Below, piece after piece: positions 4,489-32,000 of a stretch of 32,000 bases of DNA (positions are counted from its first letter, which is position 1; each line of letters starts with the position of its first letter). Origin of the DNA: Candidatus Harpocratesius repetitus (GTDB lineage Archaea > Asgardarchaeota > Lokiarchaeia > Sigyniarchaeales > Promethearchaeaceae); NCBI GenBank assembly GCA_021498095.1, contig JAIZWK010000001.1:3630001-3662000 (forward strand), read 5' to 3'. The notes beneath the pieces were generated by a model, which was given only the letters and a program-made list of their open reading frames with translations, had not been told where the DNA came from and made no database searches. The position numbers and the translations under genes are program-made.

Positions 4489-4872
4489 ATGGATTATGAA
4501 AAACTTGTTTTTGAACTAATGGATACTGAACCAGCAGTTTTTGGGGGCGCAGTTATCAATGCAAATAAAGAGTTAGTTTTCCAGACTGAAAACTGGGATT
4601 TACAGCAAGATATTGATTCTATTGTAAAAGCAATGGATGAAGCAAATAAGGATGATGGTAAAAATCCTGGAAGAATTCAGATTATGAATGTAACTTATAT
4701 GATTGTAGAATTTACCCCAGAGCGGATTATTGCGACAAATGTCGCCCATAAAGGTCATGTCATAATTGCCATGCATGAAGGTTGGGGTTTAGTTACATAT
4801 ATCGATCCTTCAAAAGGACCCCGTGATGCTTTGTTCAATGTTCAGAGTTTTACCCGTCGTTTAAGCGAATAA
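4489..4872 (+). CDS. Asgard (Loki-type) profilin
   Basis: 127 aa with 'QTENW', 'YMIVE..PERIIATN...KGHVII' and 'TYIDP..GPRDALFNVQ.F', motifs I recall from characterised Lokiarchaeal profilins. Confidence 0.88.
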   Translation: MDYEKLVFELMDTEPAVFGGAVINANKELVFQTENWDLQQDIDSIVKAMDEANKDDGKNPGRIQIMNVTYMIVEFTPERIIATNVAHKGHVIIAMHEGWGLVTYIDPSKGPRDALFNVQSFTRRLSE

Positions 4873-5375: not shown

Positions 5376-6785
5376 ATGGAACAATCGTCTACTGCTTTCA
5401 ACATTCAAAAGTCTGAGAAAAAAAAATATGAACGTCTTCTTTCTGTTGATATAGTAAGGGGAATTGCGATTTTTGGGGTTCTTTTTATTCATCCAATGAT
5501 TTTTGGAACATGGTATACCGAAACTTTAGCTTTAGAAATTGTCCCTATATATGTTATTGCAATTTTTGCACCAATTATCTTAATGGGTACATGGGGTGGC
5601 GGATTTCCCCTGATCTCTGCAGTTGTCAACACATATAATATTTATCATAGATTAGAAATCGGATATTCTTATAAGGAAGCAGCAAAACCTGTCATAATTA
5701 ATTCAACTTTTATTCTTTTAATATCACCTATAAAAAATCTACTTTTCAGCAGGACGTGGACAAATTCTTATCAAGAAGGAATGAATTATTCTATTTTAAG
5801 CAGATTGATGGAAGAAGGAGAATTGGCTTGGCCTGGTCCTGAAAAAATATTTCAAATAGGATCTTTACCATCAATTGCAATTAGCGGCTACATTACAGTA
5901 TTAATTCTTTGGATTCTCTTTAAGAATGAAGGGAGAAATAAAGTAAAACGAAATGCAATAATATTGACCATAATCGGGATATTCTTAACATTCATTTCAA
6001 ATCCATTAAACGAATTGTTAAATCCAATCATTATAGATTTATTTTTAAAGGGTGGAATTAGTCGATTTTTCGCCTTCATCCTTCGCTGGTTTTTTGGAGC
6101 CCAACTTTCTTACTTTCCCGTAGGAATTTATGGCTTTTTTGGAATAGTTGCTGGAATATTTCTTTCCGTTAGGGCACCACTTAAAAAAATTAAACGATAT
6201 GGATACGGTTTAGGTTTATTTTACTTAGCCGCTTTTATCATAAGTTTGATAATTACAACAAATAAAGCACTTGCTCAAGGGAAAAATCCTATTTTTGTGA
6301 TTTTAGATTATGAAGTATATCCACGCGAATTGTTATTTTTCAGCTTAGGATGCATGCTGATTCTTTTAGTATTTATGGTCAAACGCTATGAATATATTCC
6401 GCAAGAATTAAAAGTAAAAAGGGCGAAAAAATCACTATTTTTCAGAAGATTTGGAGTTGCAACTCTTACATTTTACGTTTTAGAACCTATTTTTAACAAC
6501 AGTTTTGCGCTTCTCTTTCACACAATTTTTGGACCCAGAGAGGGTTTTGGAATTCAAGATCCGTTTATGACCAATTTTTGGGCAATATTATTATATGTAT
6601 TCACATTTGAAAGTTTTTGGATATTGTTTTCATATTTTTGGTCAAAAACAGGGTATAAATACGGAGTCGAATATTGGATCATAAGAATTTCAAATCGTTT
6701 CCGAGAAACCAAATCAACTCGATTACAACTTTTTGATTATCAGCAAAATAAAGAGCCAATACTTGAAAATGCCAAAGAAAAATAA
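5376..6785 (+). CDS. Polytopic membrane protein, DUF418/DUF1624 (HGSNAT-like acyltransferase) family
   Basis: N-terminal 'RLLSVDIVRGIAIFGVLFIH' motif, about 11-12 TMs, late 'G..TLTFY' motif. Confidence 0.7.
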   Translation: MEQSSTAFNIQKSEKKKYERLLSVDIVRGIAIFGVLFIHPMIFGTWYTETLALEIVPIYVIAIFAPIILMGTWGGGFPLISAVVNTYNIYHRLEIGYSYKEAAKPVIINSTFILLISPIKNLLFSRTWTNSYQEGMNYSILSRLMEEGELAWPGPEKIFQIGSLPSIAISGYITVLILWILFKNEGRNKVKRNAIILTIIGIFLTFISNPLNELLNPIIIDLFLKGGISRFFAFILRWFFGAQLSYFPVGIYGFFGIVAGIFLSVRAPLKKIKRYGYGLGLFYLAAFIISLIITTNKALAQGKNPIFVILDYEVYPRELLFFSLGCMLILLVFMVKRYEYIPQELKVKRAKKSLFFRRFGVATLTFYVLEPIFNNSFALLFHTIFGPREGFGIQDPFMTNFWAILLYVFTFESFWILFSYFWSKTGYKYGVEYWIIRISNRFRETKSTRLQLFDYQQNKEPILENAKEK

Positions 6786-6894
6786 TAATAAAGAAATTAT
6801 AAAAAAAGGATAAAAGCAAAAATAAAAATTGGTTAAAAATAAGAATAAAAAGAGAGATAAACGCAATTTTAATTAAAATAAAAATCATACTTTT

Positions 6895-7614
6895 TTAAAT
6901 TACTGTTAAAAGCGGGCGTAAAAGGACTATTACCAAGATTAATACCACAATTAGCGGAATTAAAATTAGTACAATTCGAAGCTGCTGCCTCCAACCCCAC
7001 CGATTTATTCCTTTTAAAATTTTCTCTATATTGCGTTGACGTTTTCGACTTACCCGCTCCCATCTATTTTGAGCTTGATTCAAATTAGTGTGAAATTTAT
7101 CCCGTTTTTCTGCTTTCTTTTGATATAACGCGCTCTTCATAGCGATGAAATTCTCATTCAATTTCTGATTGGCAGCTTCAAATTCTTGCATTTCTTGTTG
7201 AAATTTTGCTTCTAAACGTTCTTCCCGCCGTTTAATTCGTTCAAGTCTTCTTTGCTGAGCAGCTTTTTTCCGCTTTCGTAAACGTTCTAATCTTCTTAAA
7301 TGATTCTGTCGAATATCATCTTCAAATTGTTGCAGGGTTTTTTCAGTGTTTAGTATAAAATCTTGCCATCCACGTGCGATTTTCATTGGCAGAGGCAATT
7401 CTTTCTCAAGTTTTGCTTTTTCTTCAGGAGATATGGAAGAAAAATCGTAATCTTTGCTAATAATATTCTCATTATTACTGTTATTATTTGATGAAGATTC
7501 TGGATTACTTTGATTATTATTTGAAGAAAAAAATTGATCAACTTCATTTTCAAGATTATACAAGTCTTTTACAATATCTCGTGTAATTCGTTTTCTCTTT
7601 TTCTGTGCGACCAT
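6895..7614 (-). CDS. Tail-anchored basic coiled-coil protein (paralog 2)
   Basis: Long R/K/E/Q helix and one C-terminal TM. ATG at 7614 is preceded by GGTGA, which overlaps the upstream stop. The ORF track starts at GTG 7623. Confidence 0.8.
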   Translation of the reverse strand: MVAQKKRKRITRDIVKDLYNLENEVDQFFSSNNNQSNPESSSNNNSNNENIISKDYDFSSISPEEKAKLEKELPLPMKIARGWQDFILNTEKTLQQFEDDIRQNHLRRLERLRKRKKAAQQRRLERIKRREERLEAKFQQEMQEFEAANQKLNENFIAMKSALYQKKAEKRDKFHTNLNQAQNRWERVSRKRQRNIEKILKGINRWGWRQQLRIVLILIPLIVVLILVIVLLRPLLTVI

Positions 7615-7623
7615 GTTTATCAC

Positions 7624-8553
7624 CTATATCAAACCTAAAGGAATAAATGATTCATTATTTGAAATTAAATCAAAAAGATTTACTCCAAGACCTTTGAAAA
7701 TATAGAAAATAGCCATAAGGACAAGAAAGATACCTACAATCCATGCTAATAAGCTAATATAACCTCGCCACCATAATCGGTTTGAAAATTTAACAAAGCG
7801 TTCAGTTTGTCGGCGTTGACGACGAATAAATCTTTCCCAATTTTGTTGACGTATCTGTTGCGTTTCTGAAATATACTCTTTCTGCATTTGGACAGCCATC
7901 TGGCGACGAGCTTTACGAGCAGCTCTGCGTTTTATCCGTAAAGCACGACGATGTTCCCTAATTTTTTGCTGTAATTCCCGATTTTCCTGCAGAATTGCTT
8001 CATTTTGGAGACGTGCTTCTTGTAATGTTTTTTTCTCGATCTGTCGAACCAGCTGCCGCTTTTCTCGGCGACTTTGCTCTATTTCATTCAACTTCTGCTT
8101 AAATTCTTCTTGTTGATGTTCAAAAAAGGCTTTAATTCGCCGTCGATCCCGTTCTTGGCGTTGAAGGAGGCGTTTATGACGACGTTCAAATACTTTTTTA
8201 TTTTTAACCCTTTTTTCTAAGCGCTTTTCTTCCTGTAAAAATCTTTCTTCTTGCGCTTGCTCTAAGGAATTTTGAGTACTTTGTGAGAATTGAAGCCAAG
8301 CTTTATTTATTTCATTTTCTGATGATTCTTTTTGAGAAGATTGAAACGGTTGCTTTATATCTTGGGATTGAGATTTAGAATTTTTAAAAATTTGAATATT
8401 TAAATTTTTAAAAGGATTGATAGCATCTACAAATTCTTCGAAATCTTGACCAATTTTTTCAAAATCAATTATTTTCTTTTTCTCTTCAGGCATTTTTCCA
8501 TTCACATTTTCTATATTAGACTTAATTGGTTTCTTTTTTCTGCAGTATTTCAT
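7624..8553 (-). CDS. Tail-anchored basic coiled-coil protein (paralog 1)
   Basis: Long R/Q/E helix and one TM near the C-terminus. Start may be ATG 8493 (MPEEKK). Confidence 0.8.
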   Translation of the reverse strand: MKYCRKKKPIKSNIENVNGKMPEEKKKIIDFEKIGQDFEEFVDAINPFKNLNIQIFKNSKSQSQDIKQPFQSSQKESSENEINKAWLQFSQSTQNSLEQAQEERFLQEEKRLEKRVKNKKVFERRHKRLLQRQERDRRRIKAFFEHQQEEFKQKLNEIEQSRREKRQLVRQIEKKTLQEARLQNEAILQENRELQQKIREHRRALRIKRRAARKARRQMAVQMQKEYISETQQIRQQNWERFIRRQRRQTERFVKFSNRLWWRGYISLLAWIVGIFLVLMAIFYIFKGLGVNLFDLISNNESFIPLGLI

Positions 8554-8706
8554 TTTTAAGTGTTGTCAATTTAACAATTTTGAAAACTAATATAAAGATC
8601 GCCCTTATTTTCAAGATAGATTTGTATTTATTTATGATTTGTGAATTCCAATTATTATTCTAGAATTTTGACAATTATTATAGAATTTAGATCATAACTT
8701 CTATAA

Positions 8707-9912
8707 TCATAGTGTCATTATTATTTGATTTTGTGCCTTTAGCATATCTTCTAAAATTAAATCCATAGCTTCTCTAATGTCATTTGAAGAAGTAGGAATA
8801 CTTCGTTTAGCATTGACGCTTGCTAACAACACTTCACTTAATCCACGAATTATCATATCAGGAGAATACCAAGGACGTTTTGAAGCCCACCACTGTTGAC
8901 ATGAATGAATTCCGCGATCCAAAAAGTTACGTGCATTATCAAATAATTGCTGTTGCTCTTTATTCATACTAACTTTGTATTTTTGAGCAAGATGAACTGT
9001 GGTAAGTGCATACATGATAAATCGATGTTGTTCCAAATGAAGTTTGTTGTTAGGATCAAACCATAATGGAAATGGAACTTTTCGTTCAAGGTCGTATGGC
9101 ATTGTGCTCCAACTAGATGCACGGGGTATTTGTTTATATCTAACAGGAAACTTTTGTATAATTTCAGAAACTGTGCATAATTTAATATCATCACGATGGG
9201 GTAATGAATCAAACAACGGATTTAGGAAATTCTTGATGGCGTGTTTCACGTGATGTCCGAATGTTTCTCCATCCATGGCTAAAATTACGTAATAATCATG
9301 ATCTTGATTTTTATATTTTAATCGTTGTGCGAAGGTTTCCACGGTGTTAACTTTATCGAAAGCACAATCTATTGAAATTAGATCATCTCGAAATACTAAC
9401 TTTAATCCGGTTTTTTCATGTTCTGAAATAAAGGTCGAAGGAAATTCATTAAGACTATTTGCAATTCCTGAGCTAATTACCCACTCAAAACCAGATTTCT
9501 TTATTGCTGGGAAAATTTCTTCACTTATTGCCATTTCTGGTGGAAAAAATCCTTTAGGTTGATAGACAGAACCGAAATACTGCCGATTTGTTTTTGTATT
9601 CAGCTGAATTTGACGAATGACCTCAGGTTCTGGAATAAGTGGCAATAATGGATGAAACTTTCCTGAACCTGTAAAATCAATTTGATCACGAGAAGCCAAT
9701 GTTGCGATTCCTTCAATAATATCTCTAAAACCATAATCATCCAATTGTTCTGTGAGGGTTGCGTTAATATTTAAAGTGATTTTTGCTTCAGGGTGTTCTC
9801 GTAAGGCATCTAAGATCGGGCGATAAGATTCTTTTACAATCTGCTTAATTACTGGAGCGATTTGCACGGGAGGTTGATAGATATGTAAGAGAAAAGCAAA
9901 ATATACTGTCAT
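8707..9912 (-). CDS. Glycoside hydrolase family 57
   Basis: GH57 conserved regions H-x-YQP, H-P-L-L-P-L-I, PPEMA (nucleophile Glu) and AMDGETFGHH (acid/base Asp). Confidence 0.92.
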   Translation of the reverse strand: MTVYFAFLLHIYQPPVQIAPVIKQIVKESYRPILDALREHPEAKITLNINATLTEQLDDYGFRDIIEGIATLASRDQIDFTGSGKFHPLLPLIPEPEVIRQIQLNTKTNRQYFGSVYQPKGFFPPEMAISEEIFPAIKKSGFEWVISSGIANSLNEFPSTFISEHEKTGLKLVFRDDLISIDCAFDKVNTVETFAQRLKYKNQDHDYYVILAMDGETFGHHVKHAIKNFLNPLFDSLPHRDDIKLCTVSEIIQKFPVRYKQIPRASSWSTMPYDLERKVPFPLWFDPNNKLHLEQHRFIMYALTTVHLAQKYKVSMNKEQQQLFDNARNFLDRGIHSCQQWWASKRPWYSPDMIIRGLSEVLLASVNAKRSIPTSSNDIREAMDLILEDMLKAQNQIIMTL

Positions 9913-10055
9913 TGTTTTATACCTTTATCTAATATGAAAATCTTAACTATTAATCTTTTGCGAAGTTTGTCTACTTCAAGAAAAAGGGGATTCAAATTTT
10001 TTTTATCTTCAAAAAAATTTGATAAGAAGTAATAAAAAACAAAAAAGAATTAAAA

Positions 10056-11435
10056 TCAAGATGAAATTGGAAAGAAATCATTCATTGCTTGAAAAATGCG
10101 TTTGAAACATTCTTCAATTTGGTTTGCAGCGACAGAACAGAATGCAAATCTGATACCATTAACCTTTTCTTCCAAGTTTTCATTAGGAAATGTACCAACT
10201 TTATATTTTACTACAAGATGATCAGCAAATGTAGTGGCAGAAACACCATTCAAATTCAAAAATACAAAAAATCCACCTGCTGCAGGATCAATGCTAATAT
10301 TTGGATGAGAAAAGGCATTAAACGCTCGAATTGTTTCTTCATAGCGGATTTTCAACAATTCATGAATTTTATTTTGATCTTCAAGGAGCTTAACGAATCC
10401 ATCTTTCAAATATTCCACTAATATTTCTTGAATGAAATGATTTGAATTACTTATTGTGGAACGAATCATCCCTTGAAGTTTATTTTCCCATTCTTTTCGA
10501 AAAGCAGGCAATTCTTCAGGTTTTATCCAAGAAGAATGTATGCCTAAAGTAATACAAGCAATTCTTCCACCATACATTAACATCTCCTTTGAAGCGCCAT
10601 CCAATTTTATTGGAATTAGAAGATGGTGTCGATTTACCAACATGTAGAATAGGGAATTTGAAATCACAGCATTATTAAAAACAAACCCTTCATAAGCATC
10701 ATCACATAAGATAATAATTGGTTTTTGTAGTCTCTCACAAGCATCTACAAGTGATTCAACAATATTACGAGCTTCTAATGTCGTTGGACAATATCCTGTA
10801 GGATTATTTGGAAAGTTAAGTATTAGTACAATTTTATCTTGTATTTTCGCACATTTTTCAATAGCTTCAATCATTCCGCTTAAATTAAACTCTTTTCCTT
10901 TAAAAAAATCAAATAATGATAGTTTGAGACCGTTCTGATATTTCAAAACAGCATCATAATTTCCCCAACGTTTGTTAGGACAAACAATAGATTCTCCTGG
11001 ATTTAAAAACATGCGAGTGGTAAGAAAAATAGCATTTGTTATTCCATTGCAAATCTGAGGTTTTGTAATTAAATCATGAAGCAATATTGGTGGATATGGC
11101 ATGTTTCTAGCCATTTCACCTTTTTTAATCACCCATGCTTCCCATAGATCGCGAAAAGCAGATACGCCTGCAACAGGTGCATAAGACGCAACACGTTCAG
11201 GCTCAATATTCAGATATTTCTGCAATCCAGGCATTGAATATACAATTTTCTTGTCTCGACCCGTTGGAATCATATCAGTTTCGATTCCAAAGGCGCTACC
11301 TATAGTTGCATTATATTCACCTTCTGTTTTGGCGCGATTAGCCCAATAGAAGATCCCATTTGGATGGAAAATACGTTTTCCAACGTCAGAAAAACTTTCA
11401 AAGACAGGGGTTTGTTGTAAAAGCGGAAAATTCAT
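10056..11435 (-). CDS. PLP-dependent aminotransferase class I/II
   Basis: NFPNNPTGY, DDAYEGF, GASKE (PLP Lys) then GGRI. Likely start ATG 11435; the ORF track extends to 11483. Confidence 0.92.
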   Translation of the reverse strand: MNFPLLQQTPVFESFSDVGKRIFHPNGIFYWANRAKTEGEYNATIGSAFGIETDMIPTGRDKKIVYSMPGLQKYLNIEPERVASYAPVAGVSAFRDLWEAWVIKKGEMARNMPYPPILLHDLITKPQICNGITNAIFLTTRMFLNPGESIVCPNKRWGNYDAVLKYQNGLKLSLFDFFKGKEFNLSGMIEAIEKCAKIQDKIVLILNFPNNPTGYCPTTLEARNIVESLVDACERLQKPIIILCDDAYEGFVFNNAVISNSLFYMLVNRHHLLIPIKLDGASKEMLMYGGRIACITLGIHSSWIKPEELPAFRKEWENKLQGMIRSTISNSNHFIQEILVEYLKDGFVKLLEDQNKIHELLKIRYEETIRAFNAFSHPNISIDPAAGGFFVFLNLNGVSATTFADHLVVKYKVGTFPNENLEEKVNGIRFAFCSVAANQIEECFKRIFQAMNDFFPISS

Positions 11436-18474: not shown

Positions 18475-18909
18475 ATGGTTAAATTTATGATAATACTAGA
18501 AGAAATCTGGTTTATTAATGATTATGGAATTTGCCTTTTTAATTATTCCATTGATAAAAAGATGGACCCAGAATTATTCAGCCCAATATTTACTGCAATC
18601 AACCAATTTGGGCAAAAAGCAGTAAAAAATTCAATCAATGAAATTTCCATGGGTAAAAATTATCTTTTGAGTTTGGATATCCCTGATTATAAATTAAAAT
18701 TAGTTGGAAGGACCAGCCAAACTAAAAATCGGGAGATAATGGAAAAAATGCTAATTGAAATTGCTGAAAAATTTAAAAATCATTTTACTGTTGAAGAGAT
18801 TGCTCAATATAAAGGACAGGTTGATCAATTTGCACCCTTTTCCCAGTTTATCACTGCATATTTCGATCAACAAGAACAGCTAATTCAAAATTTTAAATCC
18901 ATTCTTTAA
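18475..18909 (+). CDS. Longin-like domain protein
   Basis: Asgard longin pattern: 'IWFINDYGICLF' hairpin, 'DPELFSPIFTAINQFG' helix, strands, 'LIEIAEKF...F' helix, 'VDQFAPF'. Confidence 0.75.
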   Translation: MVKFMIILEEIWFINDYGICLFNYSIDKKMDPELFSPIFTAINQFGQKAVKNSINEISMGKNYLLSLDIPDYKLKLVGRTSQTKNREIMEKMLIEIAEKFKNHFTVEEIAQYKGQVDQFAPFSQFITAYFDQQEQLIQNFKSIL

Positions 18910-24539: not shown

Positions 24540-25037
24540 ATGAACGAGCAATCTCGACAACAATTTAAGATGATAGTAGTCGCGACTGAAAATGGACTCC
24601 CATTAGTGTCTGTGAAATTAGATAAGAATTTAAAAGAAGAATACCTCACACCATTTTTTTCATCAATTCATCAATATTCAGATCTTGGTGGTCTGCAGAG
24701 TCATCAAACAAATGTGATTATTAATGATTATGAAATTGTGATAAATCGAAAAGATGGATTAATGTTGATTGGTGTGTTTGACAAGGATATGAAAAAACTC
24801 TCAATTATGCAAGATAACATGTATAAAGTTCTTACATTATTTAAAAAAATGTATCAAGAAGAACTTGAAGCGATCCAAGAAAATAAACCAGTAGATATGA
24901 AAATTTTTAAGAAATTTGAATTTTTGATTGAAAACGCTATGCAAACGTACATTCAACAACTAAAAGAAGATGAAGAAAATCGTGATAAAGGAATATTTAC
25001 TAAACTTATAAGTTTATTTAAAAAGAAGCCAGAATAA
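24540..25037 (+). CDS. Longin-like domain protein with amphipathic C-terminal tail
   Basis: 'IVVATENGLPLVS', 'LTPFFSSIHQYS', 'VLTLFKKMY', 'FKKFE.LI', tail GIFTKLISLFKKK. Confidence 0.75.
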   Translation: MNEQSRQQFKMIVVATENGLPLVSVKLDKNLKEEYLTPFFSSIHQYSDLGGLQSHQTNVIINDYEIVINRKDGLMLIGVFDKDMKKLSIMQDNMYKVLTLFKKMYQEELEAIQENKPVDMKIFKKFEFLIENAMQTYIQQLKEDEENRDKGIFTKLISLFKKKPE

Positions 25038-25094
25038 TATTTTTCTCAATATTCATAATTGATCTTTTAAAATAAAAAAAGTATCTAAGAAATA

Positions 25095-27926
25095 TTAACT
25101 AACTAAATATTTCTTAGAGCGCCCTCTATAAAACGAAGATAACATTTCAGCAATTACTTTTATTAATTCATCTTGTTGAGTTATCGTACAAACCATTTCA
25201 TCCAATTTTTCGGTAACTGGCCCATAAAAAGCTTCTTCTTGATCGCGGTTAGCACCAAATACATTAACAGGAAAATCAGGAACTTCCCGTAAATCAATGT
25301 TATCCATTTCAACCAATTTTTTTGCTAAATCTTTATCAGTAATCTTGCAGGCAATTGTAACTTTTTGTCTCATTTTTGTTTGTTCAATGGCTTTCACAGG
25401 AAGTAAACTCATATCAGGAACGACAATTAAACAATGGAGTTTGGTTCGTCTCACCATAGCATCCAAAAATGTCATGATCGATTGTTTTGTAACTATCTGC
25501 CATGTTCCTTCAGCTTTTAATAATTCCATTTCCTTTACATCTTCCCAAACACCTTCGAATTGTTTGCGATACGTATCACTGATTTCGATAGCAGACTTAA
25601 TAGGTTCATAAATTACTTTTTCAATTGTATCAACGGCTTTAAAGAATTTTTTACCTGTATTTTCGTATTCATTAAGAGATTTTTCTCCAATCGTATCGGA
25701 TACTGTCAAAAACCCAGTATTCAAAGATTTGATTGAATCTTGTAAGTTTGACTTGTGAGTTTTTGCAGTTTCAATAAACCCATCTGTTACAGATTTAACT
25801 GAATTTATAATAGATTTTTCTGTAGAAGATAGAGTAGCATGAGAATTAGTTTCAATATCTTTGGAGATTTTGGTTATATTCCCCGCTAAAGTCGAAGAAA
25901 GAGACTCAATGGATTTTTTATTTTCTTCATTTCCTCTCTCAATAGCTCTAATGCTCTGATTAATGGTTTCAGTTATTTTTTCTTTAATTTCATTTGTCGC
26001 AGAGGTATTTTTCTGAACACTTGCTTCAATAGTTGCAGCAATTTCTCTTTTCATTGTTTTAGTTCCATCTAAAAGTGTTGAACCAAATGAATCAACATTC
26101 TTCTTTAATGTTTTAGTGTTACTGCTCTTTATCTTAGAAATCGATGAATTTAGTGATTTCGAAATGCCGTTAATCTCCTTATTTATACCAGTAACAGAAT
26201 TAACAATATTATTTTCAAATGAACTTACTTCATTTTGAATATTTTTAGTGAATGATTCAATAATACTTTGAAATTCAGTTCTAAATTCCGTTAGAAAGGA
26301 TTTTTGGGATTCAGAAAATTGTGAATGAATAGTTTGATTCATTAATTCCATACCTGATAAAATTTCGCTACTATTCTTATTAGAAACGTCGATAAGTCGA
26401 TCTGATTCTTTAATAATATTTTCAGTAAAACTAGTTAAATTCTGTTCAATTTCTGTTAATAATTTTCTTGATTCTTCAATCAGAGTTGTGTTAAATGTCG
26501 TAGCGGTTTCATTTACAGTAGTCATTAATTTACTTATTTTTTCGTTAAGTTTTTCTTTTACTACATTTATTGTGGATTTTAAAGAATTTTTACGTTGTTC
26601 GCTAACTTCTTTAATTTTTAAAACCAAATTATCCAATTCTTCACTTAAGATCTCTATATTTGAATCAAATTCGTTAGAAATGGTCGATTTTTGCTCAGTA
26701 ATTTGGGTTTCAAAATCTTTAACTCCAGTTTGCAATGTGTTATCCAAATTTGATGTGTTTTGGTTAATATTTTCTTTAAAAGAATTTTGAAGAGTTTCTA
26801 CGCTTGAAGATATTTGAGATTTTGCTGTATCGATATTTTCTGATAGTGAATTATTACGTTCTTTTAATTGATTCTCTATTGAAGCATGTTGTTCAGTCAA
26901 AAGTTCTTGAATCTTACTTAGATTTGTATTAACTTTTTGTTCTATATTCTCAATAGTTTTTCTTGAAGTTTCAGTTATATGATTAATGACAGAATCTTTT
27001 TGATTAAAAACTTCAGATTTTAATCCATTAAATGCAGCATCAATTGTTGCAGTACTTTCTTTCGCCATTTTTTCTGAAGCAACATGACTTTCTTGCTCAA
27101 TTTTATCAAAACTATTTACTGCCTGTTGGTGCCACAAATCCATACTTTTATTGATTTTGTTAACATTCTCTGAATGTTGTCTTAAAATCGATTCTGAAGC
27201 AGAATATATAGAATCTTTATAATTTATTTTACTTTCTTCAAAATGCTGCTCCATTTTTGATTCATTTTCATTTAATCCGTTAACTAGTGAGATTTTATTT
27301 TGCTCAGAAGATTGTAATGTCTCTTCCTTATTCTTAGAAATCTCAGTAATCGATTCTTCAGATAATTTGTTAAGATCGGAAGTAATTTTTGTTGTTATTT
27401 CCGAAATATTTGATTCAATTGTTGAAATACTTGATTGTTTTTGAGATTTTATTTCTTCTAAAGTTGAATTTATTGAATTGTTAATTGAATCTAATTGTGT
27501 ATCTGTGAGGGAGTTAATTTCTTGTTTGTTATCTCTAACTATGTCTCCAATATTTTTCTTAACTGAATCCATAGTAGATTTTGTGGAATCTCTTAAATCT
27601 TCTATTCCTTTTTCAACATATTTCCGATTTTTCATCATTTGTTGGACAAGTTCTTCTAATTGCTTGGTAAATCCTTCAAATGGCGCAATTGCAAAATATA
27701 CATCAACTAAACCCTTAGCTTTTGGTATTTTTTGAGCTAAACCACGTTCGACAAATTGATCAAGAATTTCCTTAATTTTGTCGTATTCAGTTTGTTGTTC
27801 TAAATTTTTATAGGCACAAACTTCTCCGATTGTTAATTTTCCTTTAATTAACAAGAGCTCATAACATGATGCTTGAAGTTCATCTAACTGTAATTGCGCT
27901 TTAGCAATTTCAACAAAATTTTTCAT
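25095..27926 (-). CDS. TrmB-like wHTH, long hendecad helical insert, and TrmB C-terminal-like domain
   Basis: N-terminus 'QASCYELLL..G.LT.GE.....IL..FVERGL......Y.A..P' is a TrmB-type HTH. About 700 aa of amphipathic repeats follow. C-terminus 'W.I....I.....M....K....IVVP...D.EEA.YG'. Confidence 0.75.
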   Translation of the reverse strand: MKNFVEIAKAQLQLDELQASCYELLLIKGKLTIGEVCAYKNLEQQTEYDKIKEILDQFVERGLAQKIPKAKGLVDVYFAIAPFEGFTKQLEELVQQMMKNRKYVEKGIEDLRDSTKSTMDSVKKNIGDIVRDNKQEINSLTDTQLDSINNSINSTLEEIKSQKQSSISTIESNISEITTKITSDLNKLSEESITEISKNKEETLQSSEQNKISLVNGLNENESKMEQHFEESKINYKDSIYSASESILRQHSENVNKINKSMDLWHQQAVNSFDKIEQESHVASEKMAKESTATIDAAFNGLKSEVFNQKDSVINHITETSRKTIENIEQKVNTNLSKIQELLTEQHASIENQLKERNNSLSENIDTAKSQISSSVETLQNSFKENINQNTSNLDNTLQTGVKDFETQITEQKSTISNEFDSNIEILSEELDNLVLKIKEVSEQRKNSLKSTINVVKEKLNEKISKLMTTVNETATTFNTTLIEESRKLLTEIEQNLTSFTENIIKESDRLIDVSNKNSSEILSGMELMNQTIHSQFSESQKSFLTEFRTEFQSIIESFTKNIQNEVSSFENNIVNSVTGINKEINGISKSLNSSISKIKSSNTKTLKKNVDSFGSTLLDGTKTMKREIAATIEASVQKNTSATNEIKEKITETINQSIRAIERGNEENKKSIESLSSTLAGNITKISKDIETNSHATLSSTEKSIINSVKSVTDGFIETAKTHKSNLQDSIKSLNTGFLTVSDTIGEKSLNEYENTGKKFFKAVDTIEKVIYEPIKSAIEISDTYRKQFEGVWEDVKEMELLKAEGTWQIVTKQSIMTFLDAMVRRTKLHCLIVVPDMSLLPVKAIEQTKMRQKVTIACKITDKDLAKKLVEMDNIDLREVPDFPVNVFGANRDQEEAFYGPVTEKLDEMVCTITQQDELIKVIAEMLSSFYRGRSKKYLVS

Positions 27927-28098: not shown

Positions 28099-28197
28099 TG
28101 GGCCCACTCGGGCTCGAACCGAGGACCTCCTGCACGTCAAGCAGGCGTATATGCCAGAAATTCAAAGAATTTCTTATAACCACTATACTATGAGCCC
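28099..28197 (-). tRNA. tRNA-Val(GAC) with a non-canonical D-arm intron (best fit 28151-28174)
   Basis: Acceptor GGGCTCA/TGGGCCC-A, anticodon arm CCTGC-TTGACGT-GCAGG, T arm CTCGG-TTCGAGC-CCGAG. A ~24-nt insert in the D arm forms a bulge-helix-bulge. Confidence 0.95.
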
Positions 28198-28256: not shown

Positions 28257-29165
28257 CTATTTTCGTTCGCGTAAGATGGGAATCTCTAAAGAACAATCAA
28301 CACATTCTAAAATACCAATTCGCACTAAAAAATGTTGTATACTCAAACACATTTCGGAGTCAAAATCTTCATACAAAGCACGATTGGTGCGTTTTGCCTT
28401 AATTAATGATTGATATTGAGTAAAAAATTTTTCCAGACATTTTTCTGATTCTTCATCTAAATGATCTTGAACCATATGAGCTCTAAAAAGCACAAAAAAG
28501 ATTAAATCGAATCGAGTCACGACACTCATTTCAATTTCCAGCCCTTGAATTAATATTCGATCAATTTTTCCTAAGTTTTCTTCTCCAAACATTGAGAGGG
28601 CGGAGATAAATTGAGAAATTAAATCCATATTCAAAGATTTATCAATCTGAATACTATATAATATATCCCCACCAACTCGTGAAATTCCAATAGCCAATAT
28701 ATATTTTCGAAGTAAGTTTTCAACTAATTCATTCCGACAAAATTTAGGCGCAATGGTACCTCGAATGGAAGAAGAATCTGGTAAGGCAGTAGTATTTTGA
28801 GGGGAATGGGATGAATTTTGTGATGATTTTTTTTGTAAAATTTGTTGATCATTTTGTTGTGAAATTTGTGATAAAGGTAAATGAAAAAGATTTGATAAAA
28901 ACGTAGATCTAAGACCATTTATACTAAATAATTGATTTTGAATGTATGTTTTTGATTGTGGAAGATAAAGAACCGGGGGATAGATTTTACATGGTTGTTT
29001 CTGACAATGAACATTAATATATAATGGATCTTGAATAATTTGCATAAGAATGGCAGGATCTTCTAAAGATTTTTCTTTAAATGGTATTGTATGTGATTGT
29101 AACCATTGTTTTAATTCGGAGCACCGATGACAATTTGATTTGGTATATAACACCACGGTTGCCAT
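28257..29165 (-). CDS. Glutaredoxin-like domain fused to a longin-like domain
   Basis: N-terminus 'VVLYTKSNCHRCSELKQWLQSHTIPFKEKSL'. Q/S-rich linker. C-terminus 'GGDILYS...DLISQFISALSMFGEE...EKCLEKFFTQY...LYEDFD'. Likely ATG 29165. Confidence 0.75.
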   Translation of the reverse strand: MATVVLYTKSNCHRCSELKQWLQSHTIPFKEKSLEDPAILMQIIQDPLYINVHCQKQPCKIYPPVLYLPQSKTYIQNQLFSINGLRSTFLSNLFHLPLSQISQQNDQQILQKKSSQNSSHSPQNTTALPDSSSIRGTIAPKFCRNELVENLLRKYILAIGISRVGGDILYSIQIDKSLNMDLISQFISALSMFGEENLGKIDRILIQGLEIEMSVVTRFDLIFFVLFRAHMVQDHLDEESEKCLEKFFTQYQSLIKAKRTNRALYEDFDSEMCLSIQHFLVRIGILECVDCSLEIPILRERK

Positions 29166-29212: not shown

Positions 29213-30061
29213 TTATTCTTTTTGTACGTAACTGAGCAATTCTTTTCGAATATTATTAAAAGCTAAACTTGTGCGATCGCGTGGATGAGCTAGATCAATT
29301 CGAACTTCTCGGGTTATACTTGCAGGATTTGAGCTTAATACAATTACCCTTTTACTCAAAAAGGTTGCCTCATCTATATTGTGAGTAACAAAAACGATCG
29401 TTAGATTTTGTTTCTTCCATATATCAAGAAGATCTCTCTGCAGGGCATTTCGAGTTTGTGAATCAAGTGCTGAAAAGGGTTCATCCATAACAATAAGATT
29501 GCTAGTAGGATTAATTGCAATAGCCCGACAGATGGCAATTTTTTGTTGCATTCCTCCAGAAATCTCTTTTGGTAAATAATCTTTATATTCTCGCATCCCA
29601 ACTAAATCTAATAACCGTGAAACAACAACATCTTGCTCTTTTTTGGGAATATTTTTAATATTCAAACCAAACCGAATATTTTGTTCAATAGTCAACCACG
29701 GAAATAAGGAAAACTCTTGTGGAATATAACCGACTTTTCCTAAACTATTTAAGGATTTATACTGTCTCTGTCTATTTTCCAAAGAATTTTTTTGCGTAGA
29801 TTTATTTGGATTAAGTGAATATTGATTATATTCAGAAGATTCAGAAGAATTGGAAAGATATAAGATTTTTCCGTCAAATTTCTGATCAAATCCTGCCAGA
29901 ATTCGTAATAAAGTGGTTTTCCCACAACCACTTGGACCAATTATTGAAAGAAAATCCTGATCTTCGATTTTAAACAGAATATTTTTTAATACCAGGTTTT
30001 CTGAATGATTTGGTCGAGAGAAGGATTTCGATTTAATATCTATTGTAAACATTTTGAACAC
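29213..30061 (-). CDS. ABC ATPase, nitrate/sulfonate/taurine (SsuB/TauB/NrtD) type
   Basis: GPSGCGKT, PQEFSLFPWLT, ISGGMQQK, MDEPFSALD, VTHNIDEA. Confidence 0.95.
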   Translation of the reverse strand: MFKMFTIDIKSKSFSRPNHSENLVLKNILFKIEDQDFLSIIGPSGCGKTTLLRILAGFDQKFDGKILYLSNSSESSEYNQYSLNPNKSTQKNSLENRQRQYKSLNSLGKVGYIPQEFSLFPWLTIEQNIRFGLNIKNIPKKEQDVVVSRLLDLVGMREYKDYLPKEISGGMQQKIAICRAIAINPTSNLIVMDEPFSALDSQTRNALQRDLLDIWKKQNLTIVFVTHNIDEATFLSKRVIVLSSNPASITREVRIDLAHPRDRTSLAFNNIRKELLSYVQKE

Positions 30062-30066
30062 ACAGG

Positions 30067-30870
30067 TTAGTTTTCTGAATTATATTTCCAAGCCAATGAA
30101 TACTTCTCAATTAAAAAAAAGATAAAATTGATCAACAAACCCACAATAGCAATCATAAGCATACCTGCAACCATATGTGAGTAATAACCAATATTTTTCA
30201 TATAATTTATAAAATAACCAATACCTGCACCAGATATACCCATCATTTCAGCAGCAATCACACACATCCAACCAACACCTACAGCAACTTTTGTACCTGT
30301 TAGCATATTGGGAGTTATTGAAGGAAGAATTACATTCCAAATAACTTGAATTTTATTTGCTCCTAAAGATCGTGCAACATCTTGATAAACAACATTACTT
30401 TGTCTTACTCCATCATATACATTTTGAAAAAGTGGAAAAAACGCACCGATAAAAATAATAAATGCATTAGAAGTAGTTGTTAATCCAAAAGTAATGATCG
30501 CAAAAGGGATCCATGCAATTGGAGGAATAGGGCGAATCATCTCAATAATTGGTTGAAAAATATGATCTAAAAATGGTGTGAGTGCCAAAACAATTCCAAG
30601 TGGAACTGCAATAATCCAAGCATAAAAAACACCAATAAATACTCGAATAAGACTTGCAATTACATGAGTTAGAAGAGTTTGGCCATCTATTGGAGTATAA
30701 AGCAAAAGAAAGAATGATTTGAACGCTTCATGAGGATATGGAACAACTCGTGTTCCTTGAGTAAATAATTGAAGAATAATAACAAAGAAATACCATGAAG
30801 CAATAAATATTACGAATCCTGCGATATAATATAAAATAATCTTGAATTTACTACGATTTTTTAGTTTCAT
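30067..30870 (-). CDS. ABC permease, SsuC/TauC type
   Basis: 'IRPIPPIAWIP', EAA-like loop 'DVARSLGANK.Q....VILPS', 'GWMCVIAAEM'. Confidence 0.95.
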   Translation of the reverse strand: MKLKNRSKFKIILYYIAGFVIFIASWYFFVIILQLFTQGTRVVPYPHEAFKSFFLLLYTPIDGQTLLTHVIASLIRVFIGVFYAWIIAVPLGIVLALTPFLDHIFQPIIEMIRPIPPIAWIPFAIITFGLTTTSNAFIIFIGAFFPLFQNVYDGVRQSNVVYQDVARSLGANKIQVIWNVILPSITPNMLTGTKVAVGVGWMCVIAAEMMGISGAGIGYFINYMKNIGYYSHMVAGMLMIAIVGLLINFIFFLIEKYSLAWKYNSEN

Positions 30871-30886
30871 TCCTTAAAACTTCCAG

Positions 30887-31528
30887 TTATTTTTCATTCG
30901 TTTTATCGTTTTGTGTGATTATCATATAAAAACTTTCGTTTCGAAGCGAGATTTGGCAATGACAATTAATTGGGGGTTTCTCCAGCACAGTTTTAAAATA
31001 TTCACTCCAATAAATTCCATATGTTTTTTGATTAAAATGATAAAAAAACGTTATTTCAAATTTCTTTGCATAAAATTCATCCGATTCGGTTTCATCTTGT
31101 GCTTTTATCTGAACCTTCCAAAAATAATTTCCTGCAATCCATATTTGCTTAATCGCGATAAGGATCTCATAAAGAGTTAAGCGATTAATCGGTCTATTAT
31201 CATAAAACCATTCAATTAGTTCAATACAATTGTTGTTTTCTTGAGGTTCAGTTGGAATCTTATCGATATAGGAAAGAAAAGTAGTTCGTCCTACAGCTAA
31301 CATATTGAAATCTGATCGCATTAAGTGCCAAAGTTGATATTCATCTAAATTACTTTTTTTTAAATCATCTAGCATATGTACACGAATTTTTAAGAGTTTT
31401 AAAGCTTCTTCAATAACATTTGAAATTGTACCGTACTGAAGAGCCAATTGTTTTAGTGCTTCATAAGTCGAATCGGAAACAGTTGTATGAAGATGTTTTT
31501 TTTTTATAGAATTTGTGGATGATGGCAT
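30887..31528 (-). CDS. Ribbon-helix-helix DNA-binding protein with uncharacterised C-terminal domain
   Basis: 'HLHTTVSDSTYEALKQLA..YGTISNVIEEALKLL' fits a beta-helix-helix RHH. First gene of the ABC operon. Confidence 0.6.
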   Translation of the reverse strand: MPSSTNSIKKKHLHTTVSDSTYEALKQLALQYGTISNVIEEALKLLKIRVHMLDDLKKSNLDEYQLWHLMRSDFNMLAVGRTTFLSYIDKIPTEPQENNNCIELIEWFYDNRPINRLTLYEILIAIKQIWIAGNYFWKVQIKAQDETESDEFYAKKFEITFFYHFNQKTYGIYWSEYFKTVLEKPPINCHCQISLRNESFYMIITQNDKTNEK

Positions 31529-31660
31529 ATTAATCGATATAATTTCAAATTATTTTCAAGAATATATAACATTTTTGTTTTTCATGTATTTATGTGAACA
31601 CAATGGTTCAAATATGCTCAACACCATCATTATTATATCGAAAAAAAGAAGTGTTTTAAA

Positions 31661-32000
31661 ATGATTTCACGAAAAAGTATGGTTTTTCTCATCTTGGGAA
31701 TCGTAATGGTTGCAGGAATTGGCATCGGAATTTACTATTATGATCAAAACAATGCCGATGTGCGTATTGGTTATTTAGAAGGAGATCTTCACCAACTTGC
31801 TTTTTATGTTGCGCGCGAACAAGGATTGTATCAGCAAGAAAATATCAAAATTCAAAGCGTTGCATTTAGTAATGGTGGGGATGTAATGACTGCATTTGAA
31901 GCATCTAACCGTGGCATTGACATGGCGTATTTTGGTTTCGCACCTGCACTTTTTCATCGATTTACAAATCAAGCAGCAAATATTACCATTTTGGCTGGTG
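31661..32000 (+). CDS. ABC substrate-binding protein, NMT1/SsuA/NrtA-like (partial, runs off the window)
   Basis: Not in the ORF track. Translates MISRKSMVFLILGIVMVAGIGIGIYYYDQNNADVRIGYLEGDLHQLAFYVAREQGLY...FSNGGDVMTAF...IDMAYFGFAPA. N-terminal TM anchor. Confidence 0.9.
   Translation, partial: MISRKSMVFLILGIVMVAGIGIGIYYYDQNNADVRIGYLEGDLHQLAFYVAREQGLYQQENIKIQSVAFSNGGDVMTAFEASNRGIDMAYFGFAPALFHRFTNQAANITILAG

Follow-up and report, generated by a model that had tools for sequence, protein, structure and literature searches.

The window analysed here, a stretch of 32,000 nucleotides from the closed 4.36 Mb genome of the Lokiarchaeia member Candidatus Harpocratesius repetitus, carries on its minus strand (positions 28257-29165) a gene for a 302-aa protein (P0001) in which a glutaredoxin-like (Grx) domain is fused to a longin domain. 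An in-frame GTG 12 nt upstream is an alternative start of this gene, and the closest named relative of its product, from Ca. Harpocratesius sp., is 93% identical. The fusion, first proposed in a sequence-only reading of this DNA, is genuine and not an assembly artefact confined to a single genome, since 29 further full-length fusions could be aligned. A search for longer fused forms of the protein turned up none, which is weak evidence.

As that reading described, the domains are joined by a Q/S/N-rich linker (28743-28874, minus strand), of low predicted confidence (pLDDT below 50 at residues 105-140) and unconserved, but its composition is lineage-specific and its length varies from 15 to 49 aa (49 aa in the Harpocratesius protein, 15-38 aa in the other orthologs). 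A functional role for the linker as a Q/S/N element was dismissed, conservation being absent among orthologs. The full-length AlphaFold model shows two domains whose mutual placement is not fixed (pTM 0.50).

Directly downstream of the fusion gene lies a gene for tRNA-Val(GAC) (28099-28197, minus strand; Rfam 54.1 bits, missed by ARAGORN), with a D-arm insertion of about 24-28 nt that is probably a non-canonical intron. A promoter scan gave counts at chance level with a bacterial model, which is ill-suited to archaea. Elsewhere in the window, a 165-aa longin-like gene is convergent with a gene for a 943-aa protein that contains a TrmB-type HTH as well as a long coiled coil of the apolipoprotein kind (24540-27926); the latter gene is also found downstream of the fusion in the genome G002. 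A 144-aa longin-like protein adjoining GAPDH is encoded at 18475-18909, and a 127-aa protein at 4489-4872, which has no Pfam match, presumably resembles Asgard profilin.

The ABC transporter cassette beside the fusion gene

The fusion gene starts 47 nt past the stop codon of a TauB/NrtD-type ABC ATPase gene, co-oriented with it and with a permease gene. These two genes and that of a 213-aa possible regulator (29213-31528, minus strand) are context rather than a conserved partner. The binding protein of the cassette is NMT1-like and its gene is transcribed on the opposite strand, away from the regulator, permease and ATPase genes (region 30887-32000 of the window, and L093:662-1669), so that the cassette is not one co-oriented operon. 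The earlier description of a gene closely spaced and co-oriented behind an ABC operon was accurate for the ATPase and permease genes, but not for that of the binding protein.

Co-transcription of the ABC genes and the fusion is possible, as they are co-oriented, 47 nt apart and also adjacent in G002, an arrangement that favours the proposal of an adaptor connected with the import of sulfur compounds by a sulfonate/nitrate-type ABC system. This proposal nevertheless appears very improbable when loci are compared. Of 18 loci, 2 have the ATPase gene next to the fusion. They belong to a single genus (the Harpocratesius genome and G002), and in each the order is a 432-aa gene, a 150-aa gene, the ABC cassette and the fusion. 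Identical flanks occur without the cassette at the syntenic site in G001, and a histidine kinase gene fills the cassette slot in L094; the ABC cassette is a local insert between genes that are elsewhere adjacent or separated by the histidine kinase gene. In Promethearchaeum, the neighbours of the fusion are Lrp and DUF711 genes. Every NCBIfam equivalog score that might have given the substrate class of the cassette fell under its cut-off, and the NMT1-like nature of the binding protein also argues against the sulfur-uptake link.

The redoxin and longin halves and their cysteines

The N-terminal domain (residues 1-97; 28875-29165, minus strand) is of the NrdH/glutaredoxin type that had been read from its sequence. 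This is shown by a match to Pfam Glutaredoxin PF00462 over residues 4-36 (24.3 bits, cut-off 22.9) and by a fold search that matched it to cGrx1 (7c10; VIA Z 9.6, rmsd 2.0, 74 aligned) and NrdH (1h75; Z 8.8). The features of dithiol Grx/NrdH-type proteins are present, namely the Grx fold, a CxxC where helix 1 begins and a conserved proline. The active-site-type CxRC (C12-C15, CHRC; 29121-29132, minus strand) belongs to a CxxC found in all 35 fused domains, and a second pair, Cx4C (C54, C59; 28989-29006, minus strand), lies just before Pro64, which is invariant in 30/30 aligned fusions. Among fused domains 31 of 35 have this second pair, and among stand-alone ones 36 of 40, one subclade having lost it while retaining the fusion. 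The classical glutathione motifs TVP and GG are absent, the proline loop reading YPP, FVP or HTP with no GG after it. An Spx/ArsC identity was rejected: such proteins are some 120-130 aa long and contain the Spx central domain, whereas this domain has 97 aa, and the match covers only residues 4-45 at a score far below cut-off.

Stand-alone relatives of the redoxin are found throughout the order, and each of the 60 genomes searched from the families f1 and f3 has a member of this Grx family. The fused copy is its sole member in the Harpocratesius genome, while G001 and L. ossiferum keep a stand-alone copy alongside the fusion. Within about 1.5 kb of the stand-alone genes, the catalytic chain of ferredoxin:thioredoxin reductase (FTR) is encoded in 10 of 28 loci, with a second Grx and in two families, and an iron-sulfur flavoprotein in 24 of 28, counts that overstate independence because the genomes are related (mostly one family). 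The Harpocratesius genome encodes the FTR chain in an FTR-Grx-FprA cluster, away from the fusion. No ribonucleotide reductase genes (nrdEF/nrdD) were recognised in the short flanks of the 28 stand-alone loci of about 3 kb or of the fusion loci. Encoded next to FTR, another Grx and the iron-sulfur flavoprotein, the small redoxins found across the order (L024-L053) have CxRC or CxKC and an F-C-x4-C insert, and carry only a generic Grx name.

Eukaryotes use the longin fold to dock Rab GTPases. The C-terminal half of the protein (residues 146-282; 28320-28730, minus strand) has no match in Pfam or NCBIfam, and its assignment to this fold, as proposed earlier, rests on models, fold search and conservation. 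The model of this half (60 rows; pLDDT 87, pTM 0.83) and the full-length model both have, by DSSP, the beta-beta-alpha-beta-beta-beta-alpha-alpha longin topology, to which the former adds an extra N-terminal helix, and the fold search gave Sec22 (Z 13.4, rmsd 2.6, 124 aligned) and VAMP7 (Z 12.8), with the best roadblock match, MglB (Z 8.5), well under the longins. In the ESM Atlas, a lead of 0.89 pointed to a cluster with Fuz_longin_1 on 22% of its members; all clusters found were unnamed ones from Promethearchaeota, and the MK-D1 protein had no usable match. The predicted structures, together with conservation, thus show a longin as the C-terminal half and a dithiol NrdH/Grx-type domain as the N-terminal half.

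Constraint is stronger on the longin half, which holds 40 of the 44 invariant columns among the 30 aligned fusions and has a mean pairwise identity of 72%, against 49% for the Grx half. Conservation peaks on the predicted GTPase face, formed by the beta1-beta2 hairpin together with helix alpha1. Four cysteines of this region are invariant in the 30 fusions: C143, ahead of the extra N-terminal helix (28737-28739, minus strand), C273, in the last longin helix (28347-28349, minus strand), and C288 and C291, the CxxC (CVDC, 28293-28304) of a C-terminal beta-hairpin (28266-28310, minus strand; pLDDT 76-80 in the 60-row model). The sequence-only reading had noted both CxxC motifs, which are indeed kept across orthologs, but had overlooked C143, C273 and the Cx4C pair, as well as the link with the GcvH-like-Rab GTPase described below. 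Many stand-alone paralogs have C273 and a cysteine two positions off C143, and two have a third cysteine in the tail; none has the CxxC, which is restricted to the clade of fused and split forms and, two fragments excepted, occurs only with a Grx fused to the longin or encoded 4 nt upstream (L021, L054). No zinc-ribbon match for the tail appeared in the fold-search lists, which longin matches fill.

Distribution of the fusion and linkage to GcvH-like-Rab genes

Homologues of the fusion number about 38 sequences, among them MK-D1 DSAG12_01044 and L. ossiferum NEF87_002021; the searches gave 35 relatives of near-equal length, nearly all full fusions. Of the 14 genomes of the host family that were searched, 8 have the fusion (three genera), and it occurs in no other family among those searched, the two domains being encoded by separate genes in other Lokiarchaeia. 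The fusion has been kept, at identities of 42-93%, in no fewer than three genera as well as several unplaced lineages. The gene of the MK-D1 ortholog is transcribed at 227 RPKM, level with its neighbours (PMC7015854). In the locus L022, the fusion gene is convergent with a gene (6024-10310) for a 1428-aa surface protein that has a membrane segment and a cytoplasmic tail of longin-like appearance.

Two divergent contigs of one assembly (L021:2-818, L054:824-1535) carry a split form, in which genes for a Grx and a four-Cys longin lie 4 nt apart; in L021 the pair is followed by another longin paralog. Because the split forms nest among the fused ones in the tree, they probably arose when a fused gene later came apart, its two parts remaining neighbours. 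A single clade (SH-aLRT 91) unites the 41 four-Cys longins and is nested among longins that adjoin GcvH-like-Rab genes, in a quick tree with a midpoint root from which six partial rows and low-scoring rows were excluded. P0052, a possible longin of this clade with no upstream Grx, was left uncounted because the longin sequence is lost partway along its contig. The tree of Grx domains is too short for dating the fusion event. In family f3, distant longins of the superfamily (L012-L017, L020) lie beside a gene for an Mrp/NUBPL Fe-S scaffold, often with an ARMT1-like phosphatase.

The nearest stand-alone longins adjoin a gene whose product is a Rab-like GTPase preceded by a GcvH-like domain at its N terminus (GcvH-Rab), an architecture labelled GCVHG in a published supplement (PMC10933270); the GcvH-like domain mostly lacks the lipoyl lysine. 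GcvH-Rabs form two groups. In the first, a supported clade of 11, a longin gene always follows, and wherever flanks were read the genes lie beside hdr-mvhD-polyferredoxin genes, with hdrABC-mvhD beside the Rab-longin operon. The remaining GcvH-Rab genes are convergent with two paired SIS-domain genes, and in some cases a longin gene lies between. In L058, this slot between GcvH-Rab and SIS genes is occupied by the Grx-longin, 29 bp from the Rab gene, and in L097 the fusion lies 726 bp from GcvH-Rab, abutting the end of an hdr-mvhD-polyferredoxin-Rab-longin run; the distance in L. ossiferum is about 11 kb. In P0044, a longin from a neighbouring clade of the same subfamily is joined directly to a Rab that is a relative of the GcvH-Rabs, and P0043 has two longins in tandem. 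A link to a divergent roadblock-Rab in L. ossiferum was dropped, having been seen only in L008 and L056.

All eight fusion-bearing genomes contain a GcvH-Rab, and its range (7 of the 9 genomes of the host family but 1 of the 103 from the large sister family) makes it rare outside the family. The Harpocratesius genome has an intact copy (C1:909632-910648) with no longin alongside; here, as in most lineages, the fusion is far from any GTPase gene, and adjacency, where found, could be a relic of duplication from an operon longin. A remnant of a second GcvH-like-Rab gene (L087:2976-3330; G000:C1 about 1492975-1493330, minus strand) joins the first dozen codons to the last 100 through an internal deletion, the longin gene behind it being intact.

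A complex of two longin halves with the GTPase domain of the intact Harpocratesius GcvH-Rab, the single Rab of that genome to be modelled, reached an ipSAE of 0.62, against 0.01 for the best control; the score mark is reached by 58 of 80 solved pairs and by 2 of 110 mismatched pairs. Zinc was included in the modelled complex, outside the score. Runs agreed in at least 84% of contacts, with a partner pLDDT of at least 77. In the model, the beta1-beta2 hairpin and alpha1 of both longin copies contact switch I/II through residues that are invariant (R163, G166, L169, F186, F193, E196), in the same geometry as MglB:MglA and TRAPP:Rab1 (PMC3747258). Since similar complexes have been solved (Mon1-Ccz1:Ypt7, TRAPP:Ypt1, MglB:MglA), the prediction may derive from these known structures. 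The model shows a docking face that looks intact and does not establish the GcvH-Rab as the true partner; together with the conserved face, it lends support to the small-GTPase adaptor suggested by the sequence-only reading.

Candidate roles of the fused redoxin

The evidence supports reading the protein as a longin-type platform that serves a small GTPase, the GcvH-like-Rab being the likeliest one. That it is a platform subunit with its own thiol oxidoreductase, the redoxin controlling the platform, is plausible, if short of probable. In such a scheme the longin would dimerise, alone or with a stand-alone paralog, and, as a scaffold for GEF or GAP activity, bind the GcvH-like-Rab at switch I/II, a step that gene context, the tree and the complex model make fairly probable, and C143, C273, C288 and C291 would, with similar probability, converge into one zinc or thiol site on the longin. 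More tentatively, the tethered redoxin, fed by reduced ferredoxin via FTR, may set the redox or metal state of the cysteine site, in which case GTPase regulation would follow the reducing power of the cell. We infer redox gating of GTPase regulation in this general sense, as did the sequence-only reading when it put forward a redox-sensing adaptor. In its strictest form it seems somewhat doubtful: thiol redox would gate a Rab-type switch directly, and a longin GEF/GAP platform equipped with a redoxin and an oxidisable Cys4 site would couple a eukaryote-like trafficking GTPase to ferredoxin/Hdr energy metabolism or to exposure to oxygen.

The redoxin could instead be a general or target-specific disulfide reductase that the longin merely positions on a GTPase complex or membrane, the GTPase controlling the site of reduction and the Cys4 being structural zinc. 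The presence of the Grx family in all searched f1 and f3 genomes fits this reading, and, being the only copy in the Harpocratesius genome, the fused Grx may still do the housekeeping job of its family; a CxxC beta-hairpin with two distant cysteines is, moreover, typical of structural zinc sites. We consider it unlikely all the same, as G001 and L. ossiferum also have a stand-alone Grx and the CxxC tail occurs only together with a Grx, which suggests that the two are coupled. Some glutaredoxins bind Fe-S clusters, and the eight cysteines (CxRC, Cx4C, C143, C273 and CxxC) might hold a cluster or an exchangeable metal and report Hdr/Mvh cofactor supply to the GTPase. Such a sensor or carrier would suit the Cx4C, which by Grx geometry should lie near the CxRC because it is beside the proline loop, as well as the partner Rab operon next to hdrABC-mvhD and the f3 longins beside the Mrp/NUBPL scaffold gene. 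It is, however, quite improbable given that the CGFS motif is absent, that a fusion-retaining subclade has lost Cx4C and that the NUBPL link is confined to a distant longin clade.

About as improbable is a single ancestral fusion of neighbouring genes, in the ancestor of the family, whose halves work independently. The variable, disordered linker and the natural split form are what such a history would leave, and domain shuffling is frequent among Asgard ESPs (10.1101/2020.10.19.343400). Yet the fusion was retained across the genera and unplaced lineages listed above, the split genes have stayed 4 nt apart and nest among fused forms, and the new cysteine motif tracks the fusion.

The proposed GTPase platform with a tethered redoxin resembles the Mon1-Ccz1:Ypt7, TRAPPC1/C4:Rab1 and MglB:MglA platforms (PMC3747258) in its longin fold, its conserved helix alpha1 and a predicted dimer with the Rab across both copies via switch I/II. 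It differs from them in the N-terminal redoxin, the extra N-terminal helix and the CxxC hairpin tail, with 8-16% identity and a GEF/GAP role that is putative. Longin, longin-GTPase and 'GCVHG' GTPase proteins of Asgard archaea (PMC10933270; PDB 8yqg) come from the same organisms and share the fold (Z 10.7 to 8yqg), and the likely partner has the GcvH-GTPase architecture labelled in that study, in which a glutaredoxin fusion is unmentioned. With NrdH-redoxins and small dithiol glutaredoxins (clostridial cGrx1 7c10, BC3987 3zij, E. coli NrdH 1h75), the fusion shares the fold, the CxxC opening helix 1 and the invariant proline before strand 3; unlike NrdH and cGrx1, it has a CxRC, a Cx4C insert of about 13 residues and a longin partner, with neither TVP/GG motifs nor a ribonucleotide reductase gene in the loci read.

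A likely ortholog by gene order, between DUF711 and Lrp as in DSAG12_01043-01045, is ORTHOMCL912 in Supplementary Table 2 of PMC9834061, labelled there as cog.001434 MON1-like roadblock plus cog.001937 glutaredoxin. This is an automatic table entry, and no discussion of function, cysteine site or partner was found in that paper. The literature searched, which leaves most subscription papers outside, likewise held no discussion of a Grx-longin fusion or of a single-chain redox-gated Rab regulator; the earlier statement that no such fusion had been described holds for discussion in these papers, but not for the two-domain label. The present analysis adds the four-Cys clade, the order seen in the hairpin, two lineages in which the fusion directly adjoins a Rab gene, the split form and the model of the complex.

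Asgard genomes encode dozens of small GTPases and longins, whose pairings and the signals they read are still open (PMC10933270), and matching GTPases to longins has remained so because they mostly lie outside operons (PMC10933270). The Grx-longin and the GcvH-like-Rab provide one candidate pair, found in two cultured species, with thiol redox or metal as its candidate input. As the fusion is restricted to one family of Lokiarchaeia, it shows a rewiring of parts and not the direct ancestor of a eukaryotic protein.
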